From: Escherichia coli
GTDB lineage: Bacteria; Pseudomonadota; Gammaproteobacteria; Enterobacterales; Enterobacteriaceae
Assembly (NCBI RefSeq): GCF_013122565.1
Contig: NZ_CP053258.1
Direction: 5' to 3' (one strand)
DNA: 64,000 nucleotides
Under the pieces are notes generated by a model. That model saw only the letters and a list, made by a program, of their open reading frames with translations, had not been told where the DNA came from and made no database searches. How positions within the stretch are numbered: the stretch's first letter is position 1; each line of letters opens with the position of its first letter. Made by a program: the position numbers and the translations under genes. Shown here in pieces: positions 49,857 through 51,877 of this stretch.

Positions 49857-50756
49857 TCAGTCCAGGTACTCTTTCATTACGCCAGCCAGCCACTGCATAA
49901 ACAGGTTTACACGCCGGGAAAGCTCCCGACGCTGCGGATAAACCAGCGAAAGGGAGAGCGGCTCGGCACGGTAGCCTGGCAACACTTCAATAAGCCGCCC
50001 GGCACGCAGGGCTTCGCGCACGGCAATGCGCGGGATCTGAATAATCCCCAGACCGGCAAGACCGGCGGCGAGATAGTTTTCGCTACTGTTTACCGTCAAC
50101 ATGCCGCCAGACTTAAACCACTGGACGCCATTAACGCTGGCAACCTCAAAACCTAACGGATGTACACCCAGGTGCGGTGTATAACGCACTATTGCGTGTG
50201 AAGTCAGATCATCGGGGCTTTGCGGATAACCAAAGCGCGTCAGATAGTGCGGACTGGCACAGTTGACCATGGTCAGTTTGCCGAGGGGACGGGCGATAAC
50301 GCCATCTTCCGGTAACGCGCCAGTGCGTATCACGCAATCAAAACCATCATGAAGAATATCTACCGGACGGTCATGGCTACTCAGTTCCAGCTCAATTCCC
50401 GGATGCAGATAGAGAAATTCCGACAGGCGCGGCAGTAACAGGCTTTTCGCGATTCCTGGCGGGATGTCGATGCGTAATTTACCGCTGATACTGGTGGCAT
50501 CCTGTTGAAACAGACCGTCCAGTTCGCTGAGATTACTCAACACATCTTTTGCCCGTTGATAATAGGTCATGCCTTCTGGCGTGAGTTTGACCCGTCGCGT
50601 GGTGCGCTGGAGAAGCTGGGTGCCAAGTTGATGTTCCAGTGCCTGTATCTGGCGCGAAACACTTCCCTTTGGCAAAGCAAAGAAATCCGCCGCGCGGGAA
50701 AAACTTTCCAGCTCCGCGACTTTGATGAACAACTGCATTGCGTGAATTTTATCCAT
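49857..50756 (-). CDS. yhjC: LysR-family transcriptional regulator YhjC
   Basis: 299 aa from ATG at 50756 (MDKIHAMQLFIKVAELESFSRAA... HTH); ORF-track start 50828 is an extension. Confidence 0.88.
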   Translation of the reverse strand: MDKIHAMQLFIKVAELESFSRAADFFALPKGSVSRQIQALEHQLGTQLLQRTTRRVKLTPEGMTYYQRAKDVLSNLSELDGLFQQDATSISGKLRIDIPPGIAKSLLLPRLSEFLYLHPGIELELSSHDRPVDILHDGFDCVIRTGALPEDGVIARPLGKLTMVNCASPHYLTRFGYPQSPDDLTSHAIVRYTPHLGVHPLGFEVASVNGVQWFKSGGMLTVNSSENYLAAGLAGLGIIQIPRIAVREALRAGRLIEVLPGYRAEPLSLSLVYPQRRELSRRVNLFMQWLAGVMKEYLD

Positions 50757-51274
50757 TTCTTTGACCGATTGTTGTTCACAGCGAAACAGTAACGCGCATA
50801 TCGCATTGTTTATTGTTTTTTCTAACATCTAATGCCGGGTTTCACAATGTTGTCATAACGAATGTGGCGATTTCTCAGCAGGAAAAGGGCGGAATAGCTT
50901 TATGAGAAGGTGAATCCCCTTAAACAGAGCGTATTTTTCAGCGATTCCCTTTAAAGTGAATAGAGGATGTATTGGCTATTTGTGCTTATTTTTGTCTCAT
51001 TGCCGTTTGTTATTTTGGCTTGTGGTCGCGGAATTTCATTTTTAATTGCATGCGTACTAACCACCAATATAAGGAAATCCTCAAAATTGTTTTAAATAGT
51101 GCCCTCGACATGTAATTTCAGGCGTTTAGCTGTAACTATTTATATCGGTAACTATTTTCTACGCGTCATCTCTGTAGAATGGCCACCGCCAAATGGCGAA
51201 TTCTTATTTTTTCTCGCGGGTAATACCCTTCCACTACTTAAGTCTTTTTAACGTATTCAGGTGGAGATTCAGTT

Positions 51275-51877
51275 ATGCAAATAGTCATGTTTGACAGGCA
51301 GTCAATATTTATTCATGGAATGAAAATCAGTTTACAGCAGCGTATTCCAGGAGTGAGTATTCAGGGGGCCAGTCAGGCAGACGAGTTATGGCAAAAGCTG
51401 GAAAGTTACCCTGAAGCCTTAGTTATGCTCGATGGCGATCAGGATGGTGAGTTTTGCTACTGGTTGCTGCAAAAAACCGTGGTGCAATTTCCTGAGGTTA
51501 AGGTGTTAATTACGGCGACGGATTGCAATAAACGGTGGTTACAGGAAGTTATCCATTTTAATGTGCTGGCCATTGTGCCTCGTGATTCAACCGTCGAGAC
51601 ATTTGCGTTGGCGGTAAATAGTGCGGCGATGGGGATGATGTTTCTGCCTGGAGACTGGCGAACGACGCCGGAAAAGGACATTAAAGATCTCAAATCGTTA
51701 AGCGCCCGCCAGCGGGAGATTTTAACCATGTTAGCGGCGGGTGAATCAAATAAAGAGATCGGCAGGGCGCTGAATATCAGTACCGGAACGGTAAAAGCGC
51801 ATCTGGAATCCCTGTATCGCCGTCTGGAAGTGAAAAATCGCACCCAGGCGGCAATGATGTTAAATATCTCCTCCTGA
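51275..51877 (+). CDS. yhjB: LuxR/FixJ-type regulator YhjB
   Basis: 200 aa; receiver-like N-terminus and C-terminal LuxR HTH (SAREREILTMLAAGESNKEIG). Confidence 0.88.
   Translation: MQIVMFDRQSIFIHGMKISLQQRIPGVSIQGASQADELWQKLESYPEALVMLDGDQDGEFCYWLLQKTVVQFPEVKVLITATDCNKRWLQEVIHFNVLAIVPRDSTVETFALAVNSAAMGMMFLPGDWRTTPEKDIKDLKSLSARQREILTMLAAGESNKEIGRALNISTGTVKAHLESLYRRLEVKNRTQAAMMLNISS

Follow-up and report, generated by a model that had tools for sequence, protein, structure and literature searches.

A direct repeat upstream of yhjB in Escherichia coli lies within a conserved, probable promoter region

The rcdB-yhjB intergenic region

The window, i.e., the whole stretch of 64,000 nucleotides of E. 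coli DNA analysed here, contains the genes yhjD (-), rcdB/yhjC (-), yhjB (+), treF (-) and ccp/yhjA (+), in this order, with a 518-bp, AT-rich spacer (50757-51274, 38.6% GC) separating the divergent rcdB (yhjC) and yhjB. The spacer was found in 5423 of the 5426 complete E. coli genomes and differs from that of K-12 MG1655 at only a few positions, all of them outside the repeat and the hexamer considered below, the repeat sequence being the same in both. No features are annotated within the spacer in either K-12 or strain 2014C-3061. YhjB matches only the GerE family in Pfam (E = 3e-22), with no receiver domain listed at E-values up to 0.01; the receiver domain is presumably degenerate. To our knowledge, YhjB is among the last uncharacterised LuxR/GerE-type regulators of E. 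coli, without a known partner kinase or signal. YhjC, in turn, matches the HTH_1 and LysR_substrate families. The features of the yhjB-proximal part of the locus, with promoter-relative positions counted from an inferred +1 at approximately 51187, are the following:

49857..50756, minus strand: rcdB (yhjC) coding sequence, divergent LysR-type regulator (open reading frame and annotation)
51132..51141, plus strand: repeat copy 1, GTAACTATTT, exact match, approximately -55 to -46 from the inferred start
51148..51157, plus strand: repeat copy 2, GTAACTATTT, exact match, approximately -39 to -30, over the would-be -35
51175..51180, plus strand: TAGAAT, probable yhjB -10 hexamer, TA[G/A/C]AAT in all taxa
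51185..51188, plus strand: inferred transcription start, at the usual gap of 5-8 nt after the -10 hexamer
51187..51274, plus strand: inferred 88-nt yhjB leader, with near-invariant cores GCCAAATGGCGAATTCTTATTT and GGGTAATACCCTT, ending in the ribosome-binding site GGTGGAGA
51275..51877, plus strand: yhjB coding sequence, 200 aa, GerE/LuxR-type helix-turn-helix (open reading frame and annotation)

The inverted-repeat search also returned a near-perfect palindrome, ATTCCCTTTAAAGTGAAT, in the middle of the spacer (50944-50961). The distal spacer (approximately 50757-51065) of the window could not be aligned with that of the E. coli lineages E69 and SCPM-O-B-8794; in the same comparison, conservation is seen over the proximal 210 bp, suggesting that the distal part may have been replaced or recombined between E. 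coli lineages.

The direct repeat and its variation within E. coli

An earlier note on this DNA reported two identical 10-bp direct repeats, 16 bp apart, followed by a TAGAAT hexamer about 100 bp before the start of yhjB. Both elements are present as described: the two copies of GTAACTATTT, 16 bp from start to start, are separated by the 6-bp spacer ATATCG, and the hexamer lies 95 bp before the yhjB ATG (51275). The interval assigned to them, 51132-51179, has the correct start and ends one base short of the hexamer. The similarity extends beyond the decamers, with the 15-nt units at 51127-51141 and 51143-51157 agreeing at 13 of 15 positions. Nevertheless, the repeat alone is weakly significant, since it represents only a mild excess over chance: 4 exact 10-bp direct repeats spaced by 10-30 bp occur in the window, compared with 1.2 (order-1 Markov) or 1.7 (order-3 Markov) expected, and the probability of finding at least one of them in this 518-bp spacer is approximately 0.02. 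When up to one mismatch is allowed, GTAACTATTT has 6 matches in the window versus 3.0 expected. The 16-bp spacing corresponds to 1.5 helical turns, placing the copies on opposite faces of the helix. A literature search for the repeat sequence returned no matches.

Within E. coli, the 36-bp segment containing both copies (51125-51160) is single-copy and identical in 5036 of 5412 genomes, with the remaining 376 carrying 1-3 differences; the sampled variants fall inside the repeat (copy 1 as GTAACGATTT, copy 2 as GGCAAC). Of 5393 E. coli genomes, 4951 have an identical 66-bp block surrounding the repeat, whereas a control block located 110-170 bp further upstream is identical in 66 of 4803 and absent altogether from over 600; an allele that only this window carries accounts for part of the low control figure. 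Across Escherichia, the mean column identity is 0.96-0.99 for the two copies versus 0.74 for positions 51158-51172, between copy 2 and the hexamer. Thus, the repeat region is under more constraint than the adjacent sequence.

Insertion sequences have also reached this region. The natural isolate E. coli ET82 carries an IS1 insertion at 51131/32, just upstream of copy 1, and a second, independent IS1 insertion is found near 51112, just upstream of the GTAAT site, in a metagenome contig (L076), with a breakpoint at the same place in E. coli AREA_502. Each IS1 insertion replaces all upstream promoter modules.

Conservation across genera

We compared yhjB loci from E. coli lineages, cryptic Escherichia clades, E. 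whittamii, E. albertii, E. fergusonii, C. amalonaticus, C. sedlakii, C. rodentium, S. enterica, S. enterica subsp. arizonae, S. bongori and Intestinirhabdus, along with 79 metagenome contigs bearing the invariant leader core. All 35 distinct metagenome flanking sequences run into the yhjB start codon, showing that the whole block is tied to yhjB. The alignments delineate 3 further conserved elements:

51070..51083, plus strand: conserved palindrome TAAGGA-NN-TCCTYA, approximately -117 to -104
51111..51116, plus strand: conserved TGTAAT, 20 bp upstream of the copy-1 TGTAAC, approximately -76 to -71
51128..51143, plus strand: deeply conserved element AGCTGTAACTATTTAT containing copy 1, consensus AGCTGTAAM.ATTYAT

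The two repeat copies have different histories, so that conservation across species, proposed earlier as a check on the repeat, holds for one copy and fails for the other. Copy 1 extends beyond Escherichia: the element that contains it (AGCTGTAAC.ATTYAT) is shared by Escherichia, Citrobacter, Salmonella and three metagenome lineages, having diverged only in Intestinirhabdus, and in 14 of 15 taxa a distance of 43-44 bp separates its core, GTAA[C/A], from the first T of the -10 hexamer downstream. By contrast, copy 2 (GTAAC 27 bp upstream of the hexamer) is confined to Escherichia, being found in E. coli, E. albertii, E. whittamii and the cryptic clades alone, with a degenerate version in E. fergusonii; Citrobacter, Salmonella, Intestinirhabdus and the three metagenome lineages lack it. 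Mean column identity over 15 taxa is 0.87 for copy 1 and 0.71 for copy 2, and both copies are polymorphic in E. coli. Between copy 2 and the hexamer, the intervening 15 bp show free variation that extends to strains of E. coli. Taxa lacking copy 2 have the same distance between copy 1 and the hexamer as those carrying it, which is incompatible with an origin of copy 2 by tandem duplication and indicates that it arose in place, by point substitutions in the Escherichia lineage and with no change in length.

Upstream and downstream of copy 1, related pentamers recur. In TGTAAT, the first four bases and the final T are invariant across 15 taxa, and the fifth base is A in 14 of them; in 11 of 15 taxa, GTAAT precedes the -10 hexamer by 63-64 bp. 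ATAA[C/T] is found 33-34 bp upstream of the hexamer in 7 of 15 taxa; Salmonella, E. fergusonii and three metagenome lineages carry a partner, ATAA[C/T], at exactly 10 bp downstream of GTAA, whereas E. coli, which has ATATC, and Citrobacter do not. Further upstream, the palindrome at 51070-51083 is perfect in several taxa (TAAGGAATTCCTTA or TAAGGATATCCTTA), and the 18-bp block holding it has a mean identity of 0.80. It looks like a dimer site of the GerE/RcsB type and, compared with the direct repeat, may be the stronger candidate for autoregulation by YhjB. The sole consensus promoter match in the spacer, TTAAAA-18-TATATT on the minus strand (51066-51095), faces yhjC and overlaps the edge of this palindrome; the number of matches is at the chance level, with 1 found and 1.9 expected.

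Gene content next to the block is variable. In E. fergusonii and Escherichia sp. MOD1-EC7003, only short fragments of rcdB/yhjC remain between yhjD and yhjB, and in C. sedlakii a short-chain dehydrogenase gene separates yhjC from yhjB; the block upstream of yhjB persists in all three.

A probable -10 element and a candidate activator-dependent promoter

The earlier description of the hexamer as -10-like is well supported. The sequence GTA[G/A/C]AATGGC is constant, bar the third hexamer base, in the 15 genome taxa and the metagenome lineages: T-12, A-11, A-9, A-8 and T-7 are invariant in every taxon, and position 3 is G, A or C. Variation restricted to the third base is what would be expected of a -10 element, and TA[G/A/C]AAT agrees with the TATAAT-like hexamer of sigma-70 and sigma-S promoters, in which T-12, A-11 and T-7 are critical. 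TAGAAT is thus very likely to be the -10 element of a yhjB promoter. No TTGACA-like -35 was found 16-18 bp upstream of it, where TATTTT, CTATTT and ACTATT each match at no more than 1 of 6 positions, and because of the missing -35, a scan of the spacer for -35/-10 promoters found none on the plus strand. The published supplements that we searched contained no start-site data for yhjB. In vitro run-off transcription has yielded yhjB-sense RNA from an intergenic probe upstream of yhjB, with a sigma-S to sigma-70 signal ratio of 1.58 for the RNA polymerase holoenzymes (PMC3141248), and in Salmonella yhjB is induced 7- to 20-fold by indole (PMC3405474).

The explanation that we prefer, and hold tentatively, is that yhjB is transcribed from an activator-dependent promoter without a -35, with the element around copy 1 as the putative activator site. 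TAGAAT would serve as the -10 and transcription would start at approximately 51187, giving an 88-nt leader; as there is no -35 element, the promoter would probably be weak unless helped by an activator. Copy 1 would then be the core of an old cis-element, AGCTGTAAC.ATTYAT (approximately -59 to -44), which is held at a fixed distance from the -10 and most likely binds the candidate activator. Related half-sites of the form RTAAN are arranged at multiples of 10 bp, with GTAAT at approximately -75, GTAAC at approximately -55 and, in Salmonella, E. fergusonii and the metagenome lineages, a further phased half-site, ATAAC, at approximately -45. The 10-bp phasing of these ancestral half-sites suggests a winged-helix response regulator of the OmpR/PhoB family. 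Copy 2, which overlaps the -35 position out of helical phase with copy 1, would be at most an accessory site. The earlier interpretation of the repeat as an operator is consistent with the conservation of the block and with the location of the copies at positions where activators usually bind (-55 to -46 and -39 to -30 from the inferred start) but not with the evolutionary record of the tandem pair, which is not conserved. Thus, the repeat region is better described as an ordinary promoter element, with the tandem-operator reading being partly supported. Being specific to one lineage within an otherwise ordinary promoter of the activator type, the repeat contributes little by itself; the conserved -10, upstream element and leader provide concrete targets for finding what switches yhjB on.

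The AT-rich conservation at -55 to -42 could instead reflect a contact of the RNA polymerase alpha subunit, as in UP elements. In its general form, this alternative holds that the repeat is functionless as a repeat, being an UP-element-like alpha contact or a tract for H-NS or another nucleoid protein, with the 10/10 identity of the copies coincidental. The abundance of close 10-bp repeats in the window, the lack of conservation of the pair as a repeat, the E. coli variants inside both copies and the low GC content of the spacer are all compatible with it. The H-NS high-affinity motif is TCGATAAATT, and the opposite-strand sequence CGATATAAAT resembles this motif; furthermore, IS1 has inserted independently at 51131/32 and near 51112, and such insertions are often found upstream of silenced genes. 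We nevertheless consider this reading somewhat doubtful, because the GCTGTAAC core contains GC, is specific and keeps an exact spacing to the -10 in 14 of 15 taxa, which fits a sequence-specific factor better than an effect of base composition.

Copy 2 could also be read as the -35 of a sigma-E-type promoter. The sigma-E consensus is GGAACTT-N16-TCTGA, and GTAACTA (51148-51154) and TCTGT (51171-51175) match it at 5/7 and 4/5 positions, respectively, with exactly 16 nt in between, an arrangement that E. albertii, E. whittamii and most E. coli retain. However, TCTGT is replaced by CCTGT in E. coli SCPM-O-B-8794, AAC is missing from the corresponding position in Salmonella and Citrobacter even though their -10 and leader are conserved, and the conserved TAnAAT fits sigma-70 or sigma-S better. 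We know of no report of yhjB in the sigma-E regulon and regard a sigma-E promoter at this position as highly improbable.

The yhjB leader

The sequence downstream of the hexamer is conserved to an extent comparable to that of the gene itself. Between the hexamer and the ATG, 45 of 91 columns are invariant over 15 taxa, and nucleotide identity to Salmonella and Citrobacter from the -10 to the ATG is 0.74-0.83, compared with 0.74-0.78 for the yhjB coding sequence and 0.59-0.69 for the upstream 113 bp. This level of conservation, approximately that of the coding sequence, extends across Escherichia, Citrobacter, Salmonella and Intestinirhabdus, with the leader always located upstream of yhjB. Within the leader, GCCAAAUGGCGAAUUCUUAUUU and GGGUAAUACCCUU are invariant cores.

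A known structured RNA can be discarded as an identity for the leader, since searches against Rfam gave no match (best E-values of approximately 5-9, with scores far below the gathering thresholds). The predicted fold is not significant (z = -1.1), and none of its 12 predicted pairs displays a compensatory change; no 3' end has been reported within the yhjB leader (PMC7815308). A leader peptide was also considered and rejected: the 14-codon open reading frame running from the ATG at 51179 to the TAA at 51221-51223 has neither a ribosome-binding site nor a synonymous-site pattern. It stays in frame throughout the 15 genome taxa, but a TGA shortens it to 6 codons in the L025 metagenome lineage, and it is frameshifted in L050.

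A broader interpretation would treat the yhjB control region as an undescribed, conserved composite module, which may span the palindrome at approximately -110, the phased RTAAN sites, the -10 lacking a -35 and the 88-nt leader. Such a module would be either a new leader RNA element, with GCCAAAUGGCGAAUUCUUAUUU and GGGUAAUACCCUU as cores and translation or mRNA stability as the affected step, or the operator of an envelope-stress- or indole-responsive regulator controlling YhjB. We consider this interpretation unlikely.

Candidate regulators and published binding sites

Several known systems resemble parts of the yhjB upstream region. The CpxR box is GTAAA-N5-GTAAA, sites of the OmpR/PhoB type have half-sites spaced by 10-11 bp, and indole activates Cpx and Bae signalling. 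As in sites of the CpxR/OmpR/PhoB family, the GTAA-type pentamers upstream of yhjB are in direct orientation and precede a promoter without a -35. We take the CpxR box to be the closest consensus to the RTAAN half-sites, and the element of Salmonella, E. fergusonii and the metagenome lineages, GTAA[A/C]-N5-ATAA[C/T], shares its 10-bp periodicity. By contrast, the copies in the window are 16 bp apart rather than 10-11 bp, and the half-site at +10 has decayed to ATATC, so that the match in E. coli, GTAAC-N5-ATATC, is weak (4/5 + 2/5). The best match, in Salmonella, is 8/10, for which the chance expectation is approximately 0.17 per 200 bp on both strands. We found no documented CpxR binding to yhjB or Cpx dependence of this gene. 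The same 16-bp interval, lacking the 10-11 bp periodicity, argues against the flagged copies being a response-regulator tandem site, as had been suggested.

The tor boxes of TorR (CTGTTCATAT) are likewise decamer direct repeats with the promoter-proximal copy over the -35 position, and CTGTAACTAT upstream of yhjB matches 7 of 10 positions of this consensus; however, the central three bases differ, tor boxes are 10-11 bp apart, and yhjB is not known to be linked to TorR. The sequences CTGTAAC and TGTAAT resemble variant half-sites, listed in PMC10294691, of the PhoB Pho box (CTGTCAT-AWAW-CTGTCAY), and PhoB binds this intergenic region, but the mapped box, GTTTCACAATGTTGTCAT, is approximately 280 bp away, and there is no second half-site 11 bp from CTGTAAC. 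Furthermore, a Pho box normally ends approximately 10 bp upstream of the -10, whereas the gap here is approximately 27 bp. The published binding sites in the spacer map to its distal part:

50822..50838, strand not specified: YhjC ChIP-exo peak (PMC8464067 supplement; U00096.2 3670355-3670371)
50839..50856, plus strand: PhoB box GTTTCACAATGTTGTCAT (PMC3465305, PMC10294691)

ChIP-exo peak positions were converted with an offset of +1977 from U00096.2 to U00096.3 (rcdB start at 3672414), which was checked against the cspA promoter. PhoB was rejected as the binder of the repeat, the published PhoB site being a different sequence at 50839-50856. SoxS/MarA was also rejected, because in Salmonella the marbox, GCACATTTTGTTAAA, is located 316-330 bp before yhjB and thus not at the position corresponding to the repeat. 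In a comparison of consensus sequences by eye, neither sigma-54, sigma-28, NarL heptamers, OxyR ATAG spacing, TyrR and Cra nor GntR, Fis, IHF, EvgA, RstA, OmpR and the GAD box fitted both the sequence and the spacing.

LysR-type regulators often control a divergently transcribed neighbour, and the LysR-type rcdB/yhjC is divergent from yhjB. The earlier note suggested a LysR-type operator or binding by YhjC or YhjB themselves. In the most explicit version of this idea, both GTAACTATTT copies belong to a single tandem operator, to which YhjB or YhjC (RcdB) binds cooperatively, providing auto- or cross-regulation of the divergent pair. Two exact decamers at activator or repressor positions in a block well conserved within Escherichia are in line with this idea. 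Several observations weigh against it. LysR-type operators lie in spacers of about 100-150 bp, compared with 518 bp here, and the repeat is direct rather than a dyad: there is no T-N11-A dyad of approximately 15 bp, the only candidates being TAAATAGT/ACTATTTA, 34 nt apart, and a 10-nt pair 67 nt apart. The copies are 1.5 helical turns apart, and copy 2 is absent outside Escherichia. The block also outlasts the loss of yhjC, remaining where this gene is deleted (E. fergusonii and Escherichia sp. MOD1) or displaced (C. sedlakii).

The ChIP-exo data, which were obtained under one growth condition (glucose M9 for YhjB), point in the same direction. The sole YhjC peak in the spacer adjoins the PhoB box at 66-82 bp upstream of yhjC, next to this gene rather than yhjB and approximately 295 bp from the repeat at 51132-51157. 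YhjB has a single peak genome-wide, at dhaK, and thus none in the spacer (PMC8464067). The sequence under the dhaK peak, ATGTTTCATAGTGAAACAT, is unlike the repeat, and the repeat is in direct orientation, not in the form of the inverted half-sites (e.g., 7-2-7) to which GerE/NarL-type dimers bind; a condition-dependent YhjB site could nevertheless have been missed in glucose M9. A Salmonella yhjC-deletion study nowhere mentions yhjB (PMC9867438), the Salmonella and Shigella papers on YhjC define no binding motif and do not mention yhjB, and a literature search on RcdB returned only unrelated papers. Collectively, binding of the repeat by YhjB or YhjC is not supported, as judged under this single ChIP condition, and a tandem operator for either protein appears quite unlikely.

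A YqhC ChIP-exo peak, flagged as RNA polymerase-bound, maps to 50848-50886 (PMC8464067), such that the YhjC peak, the YqhC peak and the PhoB box all fall within approximately 65 bp, 66-130 bp upstream of yhjC. This cluster may correspond to the yhjC promoter or to a ChIP hot spot.
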